Notes: generated from the letters alone by a model not told the origin. A stretch of 64,000 nucleotides of DNA from Candidatus Aenigmatarchaeota archaeon (GCA_038997165.1 JAWBAK010000001.1:338337-402336), one strand, 5' to 3'; positions 36,353 to 59,859 are shown, numbered from the stretch's first letter. Numbers and translations are program-made.

Positions 36353-36501
36353 GCCGGGGTCGCCTAGTGGACATGGCGGCGGACTTGAGTGATAGATTGG
36401 CGTGAAACTGATAAGAGATATAAAAAATGATGTGGGTGTCGAAATAAGAAAGAAATCCGCTGGGCTCTAAGCCCGCGTGGGTTCGAATCCCACCCCCGGC
36501 G
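36353..36501 (+). tRNA. tRNA-Ser (TGA) with 65-nt intron at 37/38 (36390-36454)
   Basis: GCGGA-CT-TGA-G|intron|A-TCCGC; long variable arm; G73. Confidence 0.92.
36389..36454 (+). ncRNA. Intron-encoded box C/D-like sRNA
   Basis: GTGATAG-12nt-CTGA-15nt-ATGATGT-12nt-AAGA. Confidence 0.6.
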
Positions 36502-43486: not shown

Positions 43487-43586
43487 GCCGGGGTGGCGGA
43501 GCGGTTTCACGCGGCGGGCTGCAGGGTTTTGCGATTTATGAGCGATAGAAACCCGCAGATCCCGGGTTCAAATCCCGGCCCCGGCT
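43487..43586 (+). tRNA. tRNA-Cys (GCA) with 26-nt intron (43525-43550)
   Basis: GCGGG-CT-GCA-G|intron|A-CCCGC; U73. Confidence 0.92.
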
Positions 43587-53561: not shown

Positions 53562-53747
53562 AGAGAATATATATTTTAATAAAAATTAATATATTTTTGA
53601 GTTATCATTTTGAGTTGTTTGTAGAAGAACTACGTCATCATTTTTATTTAAATCAATTACTTAAAAATGTTAGAACTCCTAATTTTAACTTTAAAAAATT
53701 TCAAAATTCTATTTTTAGTGTTGAATTGCTAGCGATTTATAAATTGA

Positions 53748-53874
53748 TGCGGGGGGTGGGATTTGAACCCACGACGGCTCTACGCCATCGGGTTTCTTAT
53801 CATTTATTCAAAGCTTAAGATTTTATATCTTTATCTTAAGCCCGACGCCCTTGGCCAGGCTAGGCGACCCCCGC
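53748..53874 (-). tRNA. tRNA-Leu (TAA) with 41-nt intron (53794-53834)
   Basis: TCGGG-CT-TAA-G|intron|A-CCCGA; long variable arm; CUUA/UAAG splice helix. Confidence 0.92.
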
Positions 53875-53917
53875 TTATAATTTAAATTACATCAAATTAA
53901 TTTAAATTAATTTAATT

Positions 53918-55327
53918 TTAAGCTTGATCTTGAATATACTTTTCTCCTCTTTTTAATTTTTCAAAAGCTTTTGTTATTTCTTTTCCTAAATATAAGGCAT
54001 GATCATATAAACTAAAAAAACTTCCGCCTTTTAAGGAATTGTATATTTCCCAAAAATCTTTACTTTCGATTTTAAAATCTATTAAAGAATTATCTGGGGT
54101 TCTATGTTCTAAAACTATTTTATCATTCTCTTGATAAATTAAAAATAAACCTTTTGGATCTTCTACAAATTCTTTCATTTTAAATGAATATTTGTTCAAT
54201 ATTTCTCTTACTAAATTCCAATCATGTTTATAAATATGTGCACTTGTAGAAATTGTTGTTATTGTTCCAATTTCAAAATTTGATTTAGTTTCTTTATTTA
54301 TTTCATTAACGATATATTCTGCTAATTTTATTTGTGCTACAATATTTACTGGCCACGCTTTAACCATATCATTACTTCTAATCCAAACAGTATGATTATA
54401 ATAATTTTCTGTTATTATTCCTTGAATACCTATTATGCATGGTGGATTTGAAGAATTTTGATCTATTAAATGATCCCAAGAAATAATTAAAGCTCTTCTT
54501 GAATAAGGAGCTTTAGATAATTTATCAATTAAATATTTAACTTGATTTTTTCCAAATCTATGTTCAAAAATTCTTTCTCCATATGTATATTCTACACTTT
54601 CTAATTTTTTTGGATATAGAACTTCATTAATGTGCCTTTCAAAATCTTCTCTTTTCAAAAATTCAAAAAATTCTTCTTCAATTTTATATTCTTTACCATA
54701 TAGACCTATAGTAATCATTAAATTTAAAAATTCTTTTTGTGGTTCTTCGTATTCTGAAAATTTTATACTTCCAAATTTCATTATTAAATCTAAAATTTTT
54801 ATCCATGCTCTAAAAATACTTGTATCATATATAAAGCTACCGCTTAATGGAATTGGCCAAGAAGTTAATTCTACTTTTTCTTCAACTATTATATCAATTT
54901 TTTCTCTAACTTTTTTTGCATTTATTTTAAAATTTTTTTCTATTTCTTCTTCGAGTTTTTTAATATTATTTCTTTTAAATTCTTCTCTTAAATCAATAAT
55001 TTTAACTGTATTTAAAATATTTTCAATTTTATTTATTGGAAAAACTATTTTATAATCTTTAAAATTTTTGTTTTTAAAAACATCGATTAAAGCTTTTCCA
55101 CTCAAAGATAAATCAGCACCGTAAATTATTAAAGTATCTATTTTTGGAAATTGTGCTAATGTTTCTAAAATAAAATTAATTCCGTAAGTTGTATAAGTAG
55201 TTCCAATAATTCCAATTTTACTTCTTATTTTCTCTTGTAGTTGATTTAAAATTATTTCTTTTTTTGACCATAGAGTTGATATAGCAATATTACTATTTTC
55301 ATTTAAGATTATTATATCTTTTTTCAT
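53918..55327 (-). CDS. Thymidylate synthase-like protein with MtrA-like N-terminal and DUF4346-like C-terminal domains
   Basis: YTYGER, SRRA, PPC, RSND, SAHIY; C-terminal DPKG...HALYLGKE. Confidence 0.75.
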   Translation of the reverse strand: MKKDIIILNENSNIAISTLWSKKEIILNQLQEKIRSKIGIIGTTYTTYGINFILETLAQFPKIDTLIIYGADLSLSGKALIDVFKNKNFKDYKIVFPINKIENILNTVKIIDLREEFKRNNIKKLEEEIEKNFKINAKKVREKIDIIVEEKVELTSWPIPLSGSFIYDTSIFRAWIKILDLIMKFGSIKFSEYEEPQKEFLNLMITIGLYGKEYKIEEEFFEFLKREDFERHINEVLYPKKLESVEYTYGERIFEHRFGKNQVKYLIDKLSKAPYSRRALIISWDHLIDQNSSNPPCIIGIQGIITENYYNHTVWIRSNDMVKAWPVNIVAQIKLAEYIVNEINKETKSNFEIGTITTISTSAHIYKHDWNLVREILNKYSFKMKEFVEDPKGLFLIYQENDKIVLEHRTPDNSLIDFKIESKDFWEIYNSLKGGSFFSLYDHALYLGKEITKAFEKLKRGEKYIQDQA

Positions 55328-55363
55328 ATGTTTTTATTTGTTTGAATTAATAAATAGTTATAA

Positions 55364-56515
55364 ATGATTGAAATTGCATTAGTCGGAAAGCCAAACTCTG
55401 GAAAATCTACATTTTTTAAAGCAGCAACTCTAATGGATGTTAAAATTTCAAATATTCCTTTTACAACATTAAAACCAAACAAAGGAATTGCTTACGTATC
55501 AACTCAATGTGTTTGTAAAGAATTTAACGTTAAGTGTAATCCACAAGATGGATTTTGCATAGATGGATTAAGATTTGTTCCAATAGTTCTTTGGGATGTT
55601 CCAGGATTAATTCCAGAAGCTCATAAAGGAAAAGGTTTAGGAATAGAATTTTTATCAGCTATAAATCATGTAGATGGAATTGTTTATATAATTGATATAA
55701 GTGGTAAAACTGATTTAGAAGGAAAAGAGATAGAATTTTTAAATCCAATAGAAGAAGTAAAATTTCTTATAAATGAATTGGTTCAATGGTATAAACAAAA
55801 TATACAAAAACACATTCCTAAATTTTTTAAAGATAAAAAAGAATTAATAGATGTTTTATCTCAAAAACTTAGTGGATTAAAAATTAAAAGGGAACATTTA
55901 GAAAAACATATTGATAAAATAGATGATTTAAATAATTTTTCTAAAGCGCTTTTGTTTGAAAGTAAAAAAATGATTATTGCTGCAAATAAAATTGATGAAA
56001 AAAATTCTGAAAAAAATTTAAAAGAATTAAAAGAATTTTTAGAGAAAGAAAATATTAATATAAAAGTTGTTGAATGTAGTGCATTAAGTGAATTAATTTT
56101 AAGGACTTTAGATCAAAAAGGAATAATAAAATACAATTTTAAAGATTTTGAAATTTTAAAGAAAAATGAATTAAGTAATGAACAAATAAACGCATTAGAA
56201 AAAATTAGAGAATTGTTAAAAAAATATAATGGAAGTTTTATATTGAATGTTTTAAATACTTTAGTTTTTGATGTTATGCAATATAAAGTTGTTTTTCCTG
56301 TTGAAAATGAAAATAAATTAAGCGATAAAAAGGGAAATATTTTACCAAATGCAATTTTATTAGAAAAGGATGCAAAAACAATAGATTTAGCAGAAAAAAT
56401 TCATTCTGAAATAGCTAAAAATTTCTTATATGCAATAGAGGTTAAAAGTAGAAAAAGATTAGGTAAAGATTATATTTTAAATCATAGAGATATAATAAAA
56501 ATATATCATGCATAG
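55364..56515 (+). CDS. ychF: YchF/OBG family P-loop NTPase
   Basis: GKPNSGKST, PFTT, DVPGL, ANKID, TGS domain. Confidence 0.88.
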   Translation: MIEIALVGKPNSGKSTFFKAATLMDVKISNIPFTTLKPNKGIAYVSTQCVCKEFNVKCNPQDGFCIDGLRFVPIVLWDVPGLIPEAHKGKGLGIEFLSAINHVDGIVYIIDISGKTDLEGKEIEFLNPIEEVKFLINELVQWYKQNIQKHIPKFFKDKKELIDVLSQKLSGLKIKREHLEKHIDKIDDLNNFSKALLFESKKMIIAANKIDEKNSEKNLKELKEFLEKENINIKVVECSALSELILRTLDQKGIIKYNFKDFEILKKNELSNEQINALEKIRELLKKYNGSFILNVLNTLVFDVMQYKVVFPVENENKLSDKKGNILPNAILLEKDAKTIDLAEKIHSEIAKNFLYAIEVKSRKRLGKDYILNHRDIIKIYHA

Positions 56516-56564
56516 TCAGAAGTACTCCTTTTCATCATTATTCAGATGCGGCGGCATTCTTCAT
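56516..56564 (-). ncRNA. Box C/D sRNA
   Basis: ATGAAGA-ATGCCGCCGCAT-CTGA-ATA-ATGATGA-AAAGGAGTACTT-CTGA. Confidence 0.88.
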
Positions 56565-56598
56565 AAAGTAATTTAAATAATTTTTATAAATTTTTTAA

Positions 56599-57879
56599 TC
56601 AAATTAAATGTGTTGGAAGCTTTTTTATAAGTCCGTTATCATATAATAATTTTAAATATTTACCTTCAAGAAGTTCGTTCAACACATCTTTTTGCTCTTT
56701 TCCTTCTTTTACTTCTCTTTTAATATAATCTAAAGTAAGCTTTAAAGATCTAAGAATATCTGTACTATTTATTTTTTCTTTTTCACAGAGACTTAAAAGA
56801 TCTTCATTTAAAAGTCTTTCTATTTCTTTACTTGTTAGATCACCTCCCAAAAAATGTATTTTAATTATTTTTTGAAATATTAGATCTATACTTATTGCAC
56901 TTTTAGAAAATAATAAACTATTAACAATATATTCAGTCAAGTTTTTAATCAATTTTGTTTTTGGTTTTATTCTACCGGAAATTACTAAGGGAGAAAAGGC
57001 TGCTAAAGTTAGTAAATCTTTTTCTTCTTTTGATAAAGAGTTTTCTCCATAAGCAAGTACAATTGGTTCAGCATGAAAACATAAGGGTCCTTTCATTATT
57101 TGTTCTCCATCTTTTATTATAATAAATCCTTTTATTTCATTACAAAAAAGAAAGCAAGAATATTTATCTTTTTTATCTTCTTTATAAATGGAAATTGAAA
57201 CTGAAGGATAATAATAATGAAGGTATTTTTTCATTTCCTCTTTATGTTTTAGTACGTCATCCAATATAAGATAGCTATTTTGAGAAAGTAGATATTCTAT
57301 TTTTTCCTTCAAAATAGAATAATGAAACCACAAAACAAAATTTTTAATATTAGAAATACCATATATTTGAGCGATTTGAATTAGAAATTGTGGAAAAAGA
57401 GATAAAAAAAATATATTTTGAGAAATAAGTTCACCTATTTCTTTTATTTTTTCTTCTCCTATTTTTTCTTCTAATTCTAATCTTTTTGCTTCGAGATATT
57501 CTCTCATTTTTTTTTAATTTTTCTCTACTTTTCTCATCAATTTCTATTATGTTTTCCCTTATTTTATTTCTTATTGAAGATGTTAGCTCTTCCAATTCTT
57601 CTTGAATAGGTTTGCAAACTCTCATAAAAATTTCATAAGATACTAATGCGCTTGCAAAATCACTAGTATCACATTTGGACGAAATAATAATTTCATTTGT
57701 TGGTACATAATAAAAACTACTGGGGGGGGGGGGAATTTTGCCAATATAATATTAAGATTTATCCTTTCCCAATCAATATTTAATGAAAGATTTTCTTTTA
57801 TTCTATAAAGTTCTTTTTCAAATCGATTTATAATTTCTTTGGAATTTTGAAAGTTATTGTATTCATTATGTTTATTCAT
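56599..57879 (-). pseudogene. Hypothetical ~426-aa gene split into three ORFs by frameshifts at C12 (57722-57733) and A9 (57507-57515)
   Basis: C13 plus A8 joins ORFs 57879, 57625 and 57507 into one open frame. Confidence 0.7.
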
Positions 57880-57942
57880 AATTTGTATAAGGATAGATTA
57901 TTAAAATAAGTATTAGAAGTATCAAAGAACTATTTTTATTAT

Positions 57943-58082
57943 GCCGGGGTCGCCTAGCGGAAATGGCGCCGGCCTCGAGTTAAATGATAAGCTCTGGGGT
58001 AGCTGAAAGATAATGATGATTTTGTTATAAGAGAAAGCCGGTGGGCTCTAAGCCCGCGTGGGTTCAAATCCCACCCCCGGCG
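57943..58082 (+). tRNA. tRNA-Ser (CGA) with 56-nt intron (57980-58035)
   Basis: CCGGC-CT-CGA-G|intron|A-GCCGG; long variable arm. Confidence 0.92.
57984..58032 (+). ncRNA. Intron-encoded box C/D sRNA
   Basis: ATGATAA-GCTCTGGGGTAG-CTGA-AAGATA-ATGATGA-TTTTGTTAT-AAGA. Confidence 0.75.
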
Positions 58083-58198
58083 AAATTTTATTTTAGATTA
58101 ATATTAGAAAAATTATTTAATTCATTTGATTTAAATGTTTAAAATTTAGTTTTAATTTTCTTTAAAAATAATCGATTTAAAAGAAATCAAAAAATGTT

Positions 58199-59176
58199 TT
58201 AAAGTTTCTCTATAATATTATCTTTAACTCTAAAAACTTTTCCTAAGAATTTTTCTATAGTATAAATATTTGTGAGCGTATGATTTGTAATTTCTTCAAC
58301 TTTTACTATAGACTTTTCTTCACATAATGCCAAATAAATTAAAATTTGATCTGCCATATACTTATCTAAGCACGCATTAGAATTTTCAGCATTTTTTAAA
58401 TTGTTAATAGCAATCTTTGAATTTTCTAAACTATCGCTTCCTAAAACGCAATTTTCATAATAAGATGCAATAGTAACAGAAAAACCTTTACTTAATGTTT
58501 TTTCATTTCTTACATATAGTTCAACTTCTTTTAATTCGTTTTTTATGATTTCAGTTTCTTCCCTTATTCTTTTTTCATTTTCAAATGCAGATATTCTTGC
58601 TACATACTTTATAAAATTCTTTCTTTCAATCATTTCTACACCATTTAATTTTTTTATTGGGTAAATTTCTATTTCAACTATTCCTCCACCTTTTGGATAA
58701 AACCCATGTCTTACTATATTAATTTCTGGTTTTTCTATGCCTAAAAATTTTAAGTTTTCGAATTTAACTAAATCTATATAATCTATTGTTGGTGCATGTA
58801 ATACACATGTACCACCAATTATTCTTAGTTTAACTTTTTTATTTGATAAAAAAGCTATTATTGGATATATAGTTTGCAAAAATAGAGAAATGCTACCAGC
58901 AGTTCCAATATTAATTTCTTCAAAATTTGGAATATTTTCTTCTTTCGGAATAAATTCGACTTCAGTACTTCCAATAAATAATCCTTTAACTTCCGCATTT
59001 AATAATTTAGCTGCAAATTTTGCTCCAGCCAAGTGCTGAGCTTTCAATCCTGGTTGTGGTCTATTTTTTCTAATATTATAAATTCTAAAAGGTTTTTTAA
59101 GAATGCAAGATAAAGCTATTGAAGTTCTTAAAATTTGACCACCACCTTCTAAATAGCTACCATCGATTTCGATCAT
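58199..59176 (-). CDS. rtcA: RNA 3'-terminal phosphate cyclase
   Basis: DGSYLEGGGQILR, GFYPKGGG, TNHTLTN. Confidence 0.95.
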   Translation of the reverse strand: MIEIDGSYLEGGGQILRTSIALSCILKKPFRIYNIRKNRPQPGLKAQHLAGAKFAAKLLNAEVKGLFIGSTEVEFIPKEENIPNFEEINIGTAGSISLFLQTIYPIIAFLSNKKVKLRIIGGTCVLHAPTIDYIDLVKFENLKFLGIEKPEINIVRHGFYPKGGGIVEIEIYPIKKLNGVEMIERKNFIKYVARISAFENEKRIREETEIIKNELKEVELYVRNEKTLSKGFSVTIASYYENCVLGSDSLENSKIAINNLKNAENSNACLDKYMADQILIYLALCEEKSIVKVEEITNHTLTNIYTIEKFLGKVFRVKDNIIEKL

Positions 59177-59201
59177 AAAATAATTTTGATTTTTTAAAAA
59201 A

Positions 59202-59272
59202 TGGGTCCGCCCGGAGTCGAACCGGGATCTCCGCCTCGTAAGGGCGGCGTCCTACCGCTAGACTACGGACCC
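59202..59272 (-). tRNA. tRNA-Val (TAC)
   Basis: CCGCC-CT-TAC-GA-GGCGG; cloverleaf. Confidence 0.95.
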
Positions 59273-59322
59273 ATAAATTTATAAAAAAGATTAAAGTTAA
59301 ATTCATCTTTATACAATATTGT

Positions 59323-59421
59323 TGGGGCCGCTGGGATTTGAACCCAGGTTAACGGGTTTCCTCATTTTATCGGTGCTCCATTTCTGGAGCCCGCCGTCCT
59401 ACCTGGCTAGACTACGGCCCC
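59323..59421 (-). tRNA. tRNA-Trp (CCA) with 26-nt intron (59358-59383)
   Basis: GCGGG-CT-CCA-G|intron|A-CCCGT. Confidence 0.92.
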
Positions 59422-59460
59422 AATAATAAAAAATTTTTATATTTTTCGATATTAATTTAT

Positions 59461-59859
59461 ATGGCAGAATTTAGATTAAGAGGATATACATTAGAAGAAT
59501 TGGAAAAGATGAGTATAGAAGATCTTGCAAAAAAAGTATTTGATTCTAGAACTAGAAGAAAAATTCTAAAAAGAGGATTTACTGAACAAGAAAAAAAGTT
59601 TTTGGAAAAAATTAAAGAAATAAAACAAAAGAATCCAAATAAATTTATAAAAACACATTTAAGACAAATGGTAATTTTACCTATAATGGTTGGATTAACA
59701 ATTGGAGTTCATAACGGAAAAGAATTTGTGCCAGTGAAGATTAAACCAGAAATGATAGGCAGAAGATTGGGCGAGTTTTCAATTCCTATAAAAGAGGTAA
59801 AACATGGTGGTCCAGGAATTGGAGCTACTAGAGGAACTAAATTCTTATCTGTTAAATGA
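59461..59859 (+). CDS. rps19: 30S ribosomal protein S19 (uS19)
   Basis: [22 protein letters not shown]. Confidence 0.95.

Follow-up and report, generated by a model that had tools for sequence, protein, structure and literature searches.

Introns of archaeal tRNA-Leu(UAA) and tRNA-Trp precursors as predicted single-K-loop methylation guides that share bases with the splicing helix

Introduction

In euryarchaeal pre-tRNA-Trp, the fold used for methylation and the fold used for splicing are reportedly mutually exclusive, a result attributed to Bortolin et al. (2003). Box C/D guides for nucleotide (nt) 34 in the tRNAs Leu(CAA), Leu(UAA), Met and Trp are present in Pyrococcus, where the one for Trp is intronic (PMC7994747), and experiments in Haloferax confirmed Cm34 and Um39 in tRNA-Trp (PMC7994747, PMC11408192, PMC4090602). 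Grosjean et al. described the Trp guide as always intronic and the Met guide as 'always exonic' in the genomes that they surveyed, and methylation must precede splicing for pre-tRNA-Trp and pre-tRNA-Met, intron bases taking part in the pairing (PMC2584109); methylation before splicing is thus already the accepted view, and the general idea is not new. A C/D-like RNA was reported by Randau in the tRNA-Met intron of Nanoarchaeum, only tRNA-Trp introns having been known earlier (PMC3491384), and 2'-O-methylated derivatives of nt 34 (Nm34) are known from a number of archaeal tRNAs, one example being Um34 in Gln(UUG) (PMC7668247). Here, we analyse the introns of two tRNA genes, Leu(UAA) and Trp(CCA), in a 64,000-nt stretch of DNA (the window) from a Candidatus Aenigmatarchaeota archaeon (GCA_038997165.1, JAWBAK010000001.1:338337-402336), and compare them with copies of the same design in related genomes.

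The source is an archaeal genome of 652 kb and approximately 24% G+C, from a hot-spring lineage with a reduced genome. From comparison of the sequences, we consider it reasonably probable that these introns are minimal, cis-acting box C'/D' guides with a single K-loop ('half-mers') for 2'-O-methylation of the wobble nt 34, nested in their own pre-tRNA, with the methylation fold forming first and splicing taking place after refolding.

Results

The Leu(UAA) and Trp precursors

Both genes lie on the minus strand of the window. Pre-tRNA-Leu(UAA) (53748..53874; Rfam tRNA, 43.9 bits; named Leu(taa) by ARAGORN with the -i option) has a 41-nt intron at the canonical position 37/38, and this intron (53794..53834) is recognized as a predicted one-K-loop (C'/D'-only) guide by a covariance model, R1, described below (63.1 bits, E = 6e-14). 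In the 5' to 3' direction, the precursor consists of the stem strand UCGGG, the loop C32-U33-U34-A35-A36-G37, the intron AUAAAGAUAUAAA-AUCUUAAGC-U-UUGA-AUAA-AUGAUAAG-AA, A38 and the stem strand CCCGA. The guide, AUCUUAAGC (53813..53821), is by helix parsing a perfect complement of the stretch from G31 through intron nt 2, giving 9 base pairs (bp). The D'-like box UUGA (53808..53811) stands at the expected place, one base further on, and therefore the fifth guide base upstream of the box is opposite U34 (53838). Four bases after UUGA comes the C'-like box AUGAUAA (53797..53803), in which the A at position 5, after a U, would pair with the first U of the D' box in the K-loop.

The exon nucleotides C32-U33-U34-A35 (CUUA, 53837..53840) are used by both folds. 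In the splicing fold, the pairing table places them opposite UAAG (53796..53799), which has three nucleotides in common with the C' box, and the 3' bulge AAA (53793..53795), made of the two final intron bases and A38, contains the 3' splice site. The first-pass annotation of this DNA had noted the overlap of UAAG with AUGAUAA, and we confirm it; UAAG forms 4/4 Watson–Crick pairs with nt 32-35. For Leu, the observation is stronger than was noted.

Pre-tRNA-Trp(CCA) (59323..59421; Rfam tRNA, 56.3 bits; also found with ARAGORN -i) has the same layout around a 26-nt intron at 37/38 (59358..59383), again a predicted one-K-loop guide (R1, 47.4 bits, E = 7.6e-10), the plan being GCGGG-CUCCAG / AAA-UGGAGC-A-CCGA-UAAA-AUGAGGA-A / A-CCCGU. 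The guide UGGAGC (59375..59380) forms 6 bp with G31-A36 and closes a GAAA loop, and the fifth base upstream of the D' box is opposite C34 (59387), within the exon sequence CUCC of nt 32-35 (59386..59389). The D'-like box is CCGA (59370..59373), a form that is paired with UGAGG in 4/5 of the copies having it, and both G residues past the UGA of the C'-like box AUGAGGA (59359..59365) are able to pair with its two C residues. The 3' strand of the splice helix, GAGG (59360..59363), takes in the G and the A of the C' UGA core, and the 3' bulge is again AAA (59357..59359). Although GAGG does lie inside AUGAGGA, as first annotated, the splice helix is weaker than was supposed, CUCC against GAGG giving C32:G, a U33-G wobble, a C34/A mismatch and C35:G. 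The either/or use of exon nt 32-35 proposed in the same annotation is nevertheless real, the guide fold taking nt 31-36 and the splice fold nt 32-35 in both Leu and Trp.

Inspection by eye of both genes, introns and flanks included, showed no second C/D box pair, as a two-K-turn guide would have. Rfam cmscan, run at the gathering score and, over positions 53600-59600, at E <= 1, gave tRNA matches only for the two genes and no C/D family, including that of the tRNA-Trp intron small RNA (sRNA). The weak C/D matches sit on a separate sRNA at 56514-56568 (see below).

Occurrence in the genome and among relatives

ARAGORN with the -i option found 47 tRNA genes in the whole genome, 15 of them with introns. 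The default mode overlooked every intron-bearing tRNA gene of the window; the -i option misnames the Gln, Lys, Met, Thr, Ile and Ala genes, and anticodons were re-read by eye. The one-K-loop design is present in 7/15 intron-bearing genes, namely those for Leu(UAA), Leu(CAA), Gln(UUG), an elongator-type Met(CAU), Glu(UUC), Lys(UUU) and Trp.

The covariance model R1 was built from the seven anticodon arms and introns of this genome. In its own 652 kb, the model returns only the seven seed copies (E <= 6e-9), the next match having E = 0.47, and it has matches in 35/41 genomes searched, its own included, and thus in 34/40 related Aenigmatarchaeota. The other genomes of the genus (6/6) have six to nine matches each, and all other genomes of the family have matches (18/18). 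This specificity, together with the spread among genomes, argues that the overlap design is not a product of chance. The interval 53794..59383 given in the first-pass annotation does run from the last base of the Leu intron to the first base of the Trp intron; the design extends beyond those two genes, to five more tRNAs and to the relatives just mentioned.

For parsing, we took 127 copies, the seven of this genome and the 120 best matches outside it; a further 45 weaker matches (30 with E >= 2.4e-4) lie outside the set. A strict definition, with 6/6 pairs at nt 31-36 and an NNGA box placed such that nt 34 is at N+5, that is, opposite the fifth guide base upstream of the box, holds for 117/127 copies, to which the counts given below refer. 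The ten copies left out had fewer than 6/6 guide pairs (L095, L117, L121, L170 and L181), or an odd parse or no UGA (L173, L176, L186, L187 and L188). The 117 copies cover nine anticodons, Ser(UGA) and Arg(UCU) being absent from the seed set, and have introns of 22-41 nt with a median of 31 nt.

The tRNAs of this genome with a guide for nt 34 are the U34 or C34 readers of split codon boxes, comprising the U34 forms of Leu UUR, Gln, Glu and Lys together with Met and Trp; the C34 sister tRNAs Gln(CUG), Glu(CUC) and Lys(CUU) are without an intron. The idea that Um34 stands in for xm5U chemistry was dropped because the genome encodes an Elp3 homologue (571 bits).

The methylation fold

In a model-based alignment of 101 matches, 99.9% of the cells in the anticodon stem and guide helix are paired (100% in the stem itself), with a covariation score of 0.608 compared with 0.151 for shuffles, none of 500 of which reached 0.608, and shifting the partners by one column lowers the pairing to 42-51%. 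The guide pair at nt 34 is C:G in 49 rows and U:A in 48 rows. This alignment is biased toward the structure because it was fitted to the model, but an independent parse of the copies agrees with it. In the 117 copies, nt 31 covaries with guide base N2 (G:C in 98, C:G in 18 and A:U in one); the guide duplex takes nt 31, and therefore the top pair of the anticodon stem (31:39) must open. The guide helix is formed with exon bases only (6-7 bp) in 78/117 copies and includes one to three intron bases in the other 39, so that in these the pairs concerned exist only before splicing.

An NNGA box (consensus CUGA) occupies the D' position, fixed by the register, in every one of the 117 copies (UUGA in 80, CUGA in 24, CCGA in five, UCGA in four, and CAGA and AUGA in two each), and all have a UGA 2-10 nt past it, the full UGAUGA of the consensus RUGAUGA being rare. 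Position 5 of the C' box, which is the second base after UGA, pairs with position 1 of the D' box in 115/117 copies, 114 of them by a Watson–Crick pair, compared with a mean of approximately 92 and a maximum of 100 in 2000 shuffles. The boxes come in matched sets, UUGA/UGAnA, CUGA/UGAnG, CCGA/UGAGG and UCGA/UGAGA; the two bases after UGA covary with the first two of NNGA, like the partners in a K-loop's non-canonical stem, and the two boxes appear to behave as a K-loop of the kind bound by L7Ae. The proteins of the C/D ribonucleoprotein (RNP) are encoded by the genome: fibrillarin (PF01269, 269.5 bits), Nop5 (PF01798, 155.3 bits) and L7Ae (PF01248, 106.3 bits).

The splicing fold and the endonuclease

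With the four bases that precede the 3-nt bulge assigned to the central helix as its 3' strand, C32 is opposite G in 117/117 copies, nt 33 is paired in 108/117, and nt 35 is paired with its splice partner in 97/117, for which 5000 shuffles gave 56 on average and 74 at most. Nucleotide 34 is paired in this helix in 65/117 copies, U34 being opposite A in 56/58. The central 4-bp helix has 4/4 pairs in 48 copies, 3/4 in 57 and 2/4 in 12; Leu(UAA) of the window belongs to the first of these classes and Trp to the second, with its wobble included. The 3' bulge is of 3 nt and of the form A-N-A throughout (117/117), AAA accounting for 106 copies. In 37/117 copies, a 5' bulge of exactly 3 nt is followed by an inner helix of 3 bp or more, compared with 5-9/117 for bulges of 1, 2, 4 or 5 nt. 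This signal comes mostly from Gln, Met and Glu, and in the Gln, Met and Glu copies of this genome it is the C' UGA itself that forms the 3' strand of the inner helix, pairing with intron nt 2-4.

The genome encodes EndA as a single protein of 397 amino acids (G000:C2:3206-4399, which is L035:1189-2382; minus strand) that matches Protein Data Bank entry 4fz2 over its full length (residues 19-397, E = 8.7e-83). The 4fz2 accession appears in a paper on the epsilon2 EndA of ARMAN-2, a three-unit enzyme of broad specificity that is reported to cut relaxed motifs (PMC3488258; PMC5829648). The protein is of the epsilon2 type and is predicted to be able to cut relaxed motifs. Homologues are present in 17 loci of metagenome-assembled genomes, 15 of them from Aenigmatarchaeota, with 43-97% identity; the epsilon2 type is named only for Micrarchaeum and Mancarchaeum in the text available to us of a 2018 paper. 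In one other genome of the genus (G006; loci L156, L166, L169 and L172), the C' UGA is directly at the 3' splice site (..UUGAUUGGUGA/AAC.., the slash marking the site) in Leu(CAA), Trp, Met and Glu. The central splice helix of these copies is only 2-3/4 paired, with U33 always opposite U.

Nucleotides common to the two folds

The C' box, taken as UGA and the three bases after it, overlaps the splice strand in 108/117 copies, with an offset between box and strand that depends on the tRNA: mostly 1 in Trp, Lys and Ser, 2 in Gln, and 3 in Leu, Met and Glu. Where the offset is 1, one and the same G of the C' box has to pair with D' position 1 and with C32, and the D' box begins with C in 27/29 copies; at offsets 2-3, that C' base is an A of an RAAG strand, and the D' box is UUGA in 57/61. 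This three-way coupling of exon, C' box and D' box is, in our opinion, the best support for the C' box doubling as the splice strand. The departures from AUGAUGA had been explained in the first-pass annotation as those that allow pairing with each anticodon loop. That explanation holds in so far as nt 35 covaries with its splice partner, but the departures track the D' box just as much, through the pair of C' position 5 with D' position 1, and they leave C34 unpaired.

Since the guide hairpin and K-loop, with 31:39 opened, use the bases of the splicing fold, the two folds are mutually exclusive, and since there is comparative signal in both, both appear to be under selection while being unable to coexist. 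The comparison of copies therefore shows what appear to be two selected and mutually exclusive folds in the same precursor.

Which of the two would be favoured in the free RNA was estimated by nearest-neighbour folding of nt 27-43 with the intron. The minimum-energy fold contains the guide hairpin in 5/7 constructs of this genome, the exceptions being Glu, which pairs nt 32-36 with the C'-side strand, and Gln, in which the guide hairpin is joined to a portion of the splice-side strand. The strict splicing motif, when enforced, costs 2.0 to 6.8 kcal/mol compared with enforcing only the anticodon stem in the seven constructs. With the anticodon stem enforced in all 117 copies, nt 34 is bound by the guide in 86 and paired in the splice register in three, the remaining 28 showing neither, and the splice helix carries a median penalty of 3.3 kcal/mol, a figure to be taken as a rough trend only. 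These models suggest that the naked RNA already prefers the guide hairpin, so that the fold need not be held by the RNP, as the first-pass annotation had it.

Neighbouring guide-like RNAs

Rfam searches of the window gave one archaeal signal recognition particle RNA and ten tRNA matches, five of which exceed plain tRNA length. One further intron with the same K-loop is that of tRNA-Cys(GCA) (43487-43586, plus strand), of 26 nt at about 43525-43550, with GCGA...UGAGC and both pairs Watson–Crick. Its guide GGGUUUU, from G37, pairs with the 3' splice junction and C39-C41, putting N+5 on C39. The Cys boxes covary in seven genomes of the genus (GCGA/UGAGC versus GUGA/UGAUC), and a genome of another genus has a 10-bp guide in the same register. 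The Cys intron would guide the formation of Cm39 and, for as long as its guide is paired, would also disrupt the splicing motif.

Two Ser genes on the plus strand have introns with a fuller C/D layout: tRNA-Ser(CGA) (57943-58082), with a 56-nt intron at 57980-58035, and tRNA-Ser(UGA) (36353-36501), with a 65-nt intron. Both introns have a C box of degenerate sequence close to the 5' splice site, the canonical D' box CUGA, a C' box AUGAUG(A/U), a second guide running into the 3' splice site and no clear D box, and their guides lack complementarity to the anticodon loops of the tRNAs that contain them. On the minus strand at 56514-56568, there is a free-standing, canonical two-K-turn C/D sRNA (C box AUGAAGA, D' CUGA, C' AUGAUGA, D CUGA) with sub-threshold Rfam matches to sR2, sR12 and sR5. 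A search for targets of the two Ser-intron guides and of this sRNA returned mostly the antisense of their own genes, with one 13-nt match elsewhere (C1:465640).

Discussion

Proposed order of methylation and splicing

In the arrangement that sequence and comparison show, a stretch antisense to nt 31-36 follows directly past the anticodon loop, its pairing sometimes reaching 1-3 nt into the intron, and an NNGA box one base further on places nt 34 at N+5. A UGA box 3-9 nt on, after a loop of 4-5 nt in Leu(UAA) and Trp, covaries with NNGA as in a K-loop that L7Ae would bind, and the bases at or just past this UGA can also form, with the AAA bulge and the anticodon stem, the helix of the splicing motif on nt 32-35. 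Transcription proceeds in the order target, guide, D' box and C' box, and because of this order, and of the prediction that the guide hairpin is the ground state, we expect the methylation fold to be the first to form. The RNP proteins L7Ae, Nop5 and fibrillarin could assemble on the guide fold and methylate nt 34, after which the guide would have to give up nt 32-35 to the C'-side strand before cutting by the epsilon2 EndA of broad specificity. As we see no sequence feature that would sense a 2'-O-methyl group, we picture a pathway whose order comes from the kinetics of folding and from occupancy by the RNP, without a methyl-group sensor, rather than a switch thrown by the modification. It is plausible, as the first-pass annotation also suggested, that occupancy by the RNP blocks splicing until nt 34 is methylated. 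A bolder version would have wobble methylation hard-wired, in Aenigmatarchaeota, into the maturation of at least seven tRNAs, with a 22-41-nt intron as the smallest natural fibrillarin guide, acting on its own precursor in a single-K-loop RNP, and, since K-loop and splicing motif occupy the same nucleotides, with occupancy by L7Ae, Nop5 and fibrillarin as an obligatory licence, without which no tRNA would be spliced, and a built-in quality checkpoint in place of an optional modification; this we put forward tentatively, as a possibility that is itself doubtful.

Several observations weigh against the proposed pathway. In the splicing fold, C34 is opposite A in 50/59 of the C34 copies, leaving a C/A mismatch in the splice helix, and the inner helix has 0-1 bp in 18/20 Trp and 8/9 Leu(UAA) copies and is absent from Lys and Ser; in these four the motif is therefore of the relaxed kind, and for its cleavage we would have to rely on the type of EndA only. 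The guide duplexes are short (6-10 bp) and no terminal C/D K-turn is present. The C' box is fully upstream of the splice strand in 9/117 copies, mostly Gln of a second genus, and overlap is thus not a requirement. Because the model used for collecting the copies already contains the design, including the GA of the D' box, the presence of the boxes is partly selected for. The energies of enforced helices with mismatches are unreliable, some of the differences being negative. Finally, three hot-spring metatranscriptome runs gave 0, 0 and 6 reads, all of them only partly on the stretch and continuing into unlike sequence, and are uninformative for splicing or expression.

The intron might alternatively be a gene for a trans-acting guide, with the excised 22-41-nt RNA (linear or circular) or a second precursor methylating nt 34 of other tRNAs, and with the two folds setting no order. 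Such a role would agree with in vitro work on Haloferax pre-tRNA-Trp, which according to several reviews favoured a trans-acting RNP (PMC11408192, PMC4090602, PMC7994747, PMC2584109) and so speaks against action in cis; it would agree also with the guide helices on exon bases only, for which the mature tRNA is a possible target. However, the 39 helices that take in intron bases point to an unspliced target, and even in trans a precursor serving as target must leave the splice fold. An intermolecular duplex of 6-7 bp would also be weak, the related RNA runs being labelled hot-spring, whereas the intramolecular hairpin is the predicted ground state. On balance, we regard a trans-acting guide gene as unlikely.

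Two further explanations dispense with methylation of nt 34 altogether. Single K-loops bind L7Ae in other contexts, and a hairpin with an L7Ae-binding K-loop might serve folding, protection or presentation of the splice sites, Nm34 in this organism being predicted from sequence alone. A chaperone hairpin would have no reason, however, to keep nt 34 at N+5 in 117/127 copies and across nine anticodons; the set of tRNAs matches the known C/D-guided Nm34 targets, and the tRNA-Cys intron of the same genomes has the same K-loop with N+5 on C39, all of which makes this explanation a quite improbable one. That the complementarity to the anticodon loop is ordinary pairing of the splicing motif, with boxes arising by chance in AT-rich sequence, is harder still to accept. 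UGA and GA motifs are frequent at approximately 24% G+C, and every canonical intron must pair with nt 32-35, but the intron has two distinct strands with this complementarity, one being the guide and the other the splice strand, covariation is present in the guide helix and at both positions of the K-loop, and the model finds nothing else in the 652 kb; these results already contradict a chance origin, to which we give hardly any credence.

If the cis-acting, single-K-loop reading is correct, intron self-guidance, described in the papers cited here only for tRNA-Trp and one Nanoarchaeum tRNA-Met intron, would here be the rule for the split-codon-box set of tRNAs in a lineage of reduced genomes, and would give a concrete reason for the retention of introns at the canonical position. 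The precursors would offer natural minimal substrates, down to 43 nt for anticodon arm and intron, with which to ask whether one K-loop is enough for fibrillarin and by what route a product linked in cis is released from the active site. They would also be a clean system of two RNA states, with protein binding and splicing in competition for one set of bases, and the three-way covariation of exon, C' box and D' box would show with unusual clarity nucleotides that are constrained by two structures at once, of relevance to archaeal RNA processing and to the mechanism of the C/D RNP.

Comparison with known systems

The introns most closely resemble the euryarchaeal pre-tRNA-Trp guide (the 103-nt intron of Haloferax volcanii; Pyrococcus sR50) in being 37/38 introns antisense to their own anticodon loop, with N+5 on nt 34 (C34 in the Trp guide), a duplex that can cross the exon–intron junction and methylation before splicing, the last of these predicted here. 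In contrast to that guide, they are of only 22-41 nt, with one K-loop, one guide and no terminal C/D pair; they occur in seven tRNA species of the genome, and with nine anticodons across the relatives, rather than in Trp alone; and in 108/117 copies it is the C' box that supplies the splice strand. The trans-acting sRNAs of Pyrococcus for Leu(CAA), Leu(UAA) and elongator Met have the same target position in the same tRNAs (PMC7994747, PMC2584109), but they are free-standing, two-K-turn RNAs, whereas the guide here is within the intron of its own target. The 66-nt intron found in elongator tRNA-Met of Nanoarchaeum equitans, like those studied here, is an intronic C/D-type RNA of a DPANN archaeon outside tRNA-Trp; it is longer, however, and has a box C and a box D, with targets not established and no sharing with a splice helix in the description available (PMC3491384).

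On the splicing side, the precursors are like the relaxed bulge-helix-bulge introns handled by broad-specificity EndA enzymes (alpha2beta2 and epsilon2) in having an anticodon stem, a 3-nt 3' bulge, a putative 4-bp helix and a 5' side that is often without an inner helix (PMC3488258, PMC5829648), and differ from them in that the 3' strand of the helix is predicted to be part of a protein-binding K-loop as well. That fibrillarin can be directed by guides of reduced design is shown by engineered half-mer or C/D-free guides (PMC9670817), which were made in the laboratory and act in trans, while the introns described here are natural, cis-linked and conserved in a clade. In the literature searched, mostly without subscription journals, we found intron guides with one K-loop described for none of the tRNAs Leu, Gln, Glu and Lys. 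What is new in the present system, compared with those already described, is the single K-loop within 22-41 nt, its spread to at least seven tRNA species, and the placing of K-loop and splice helix in the same bases.

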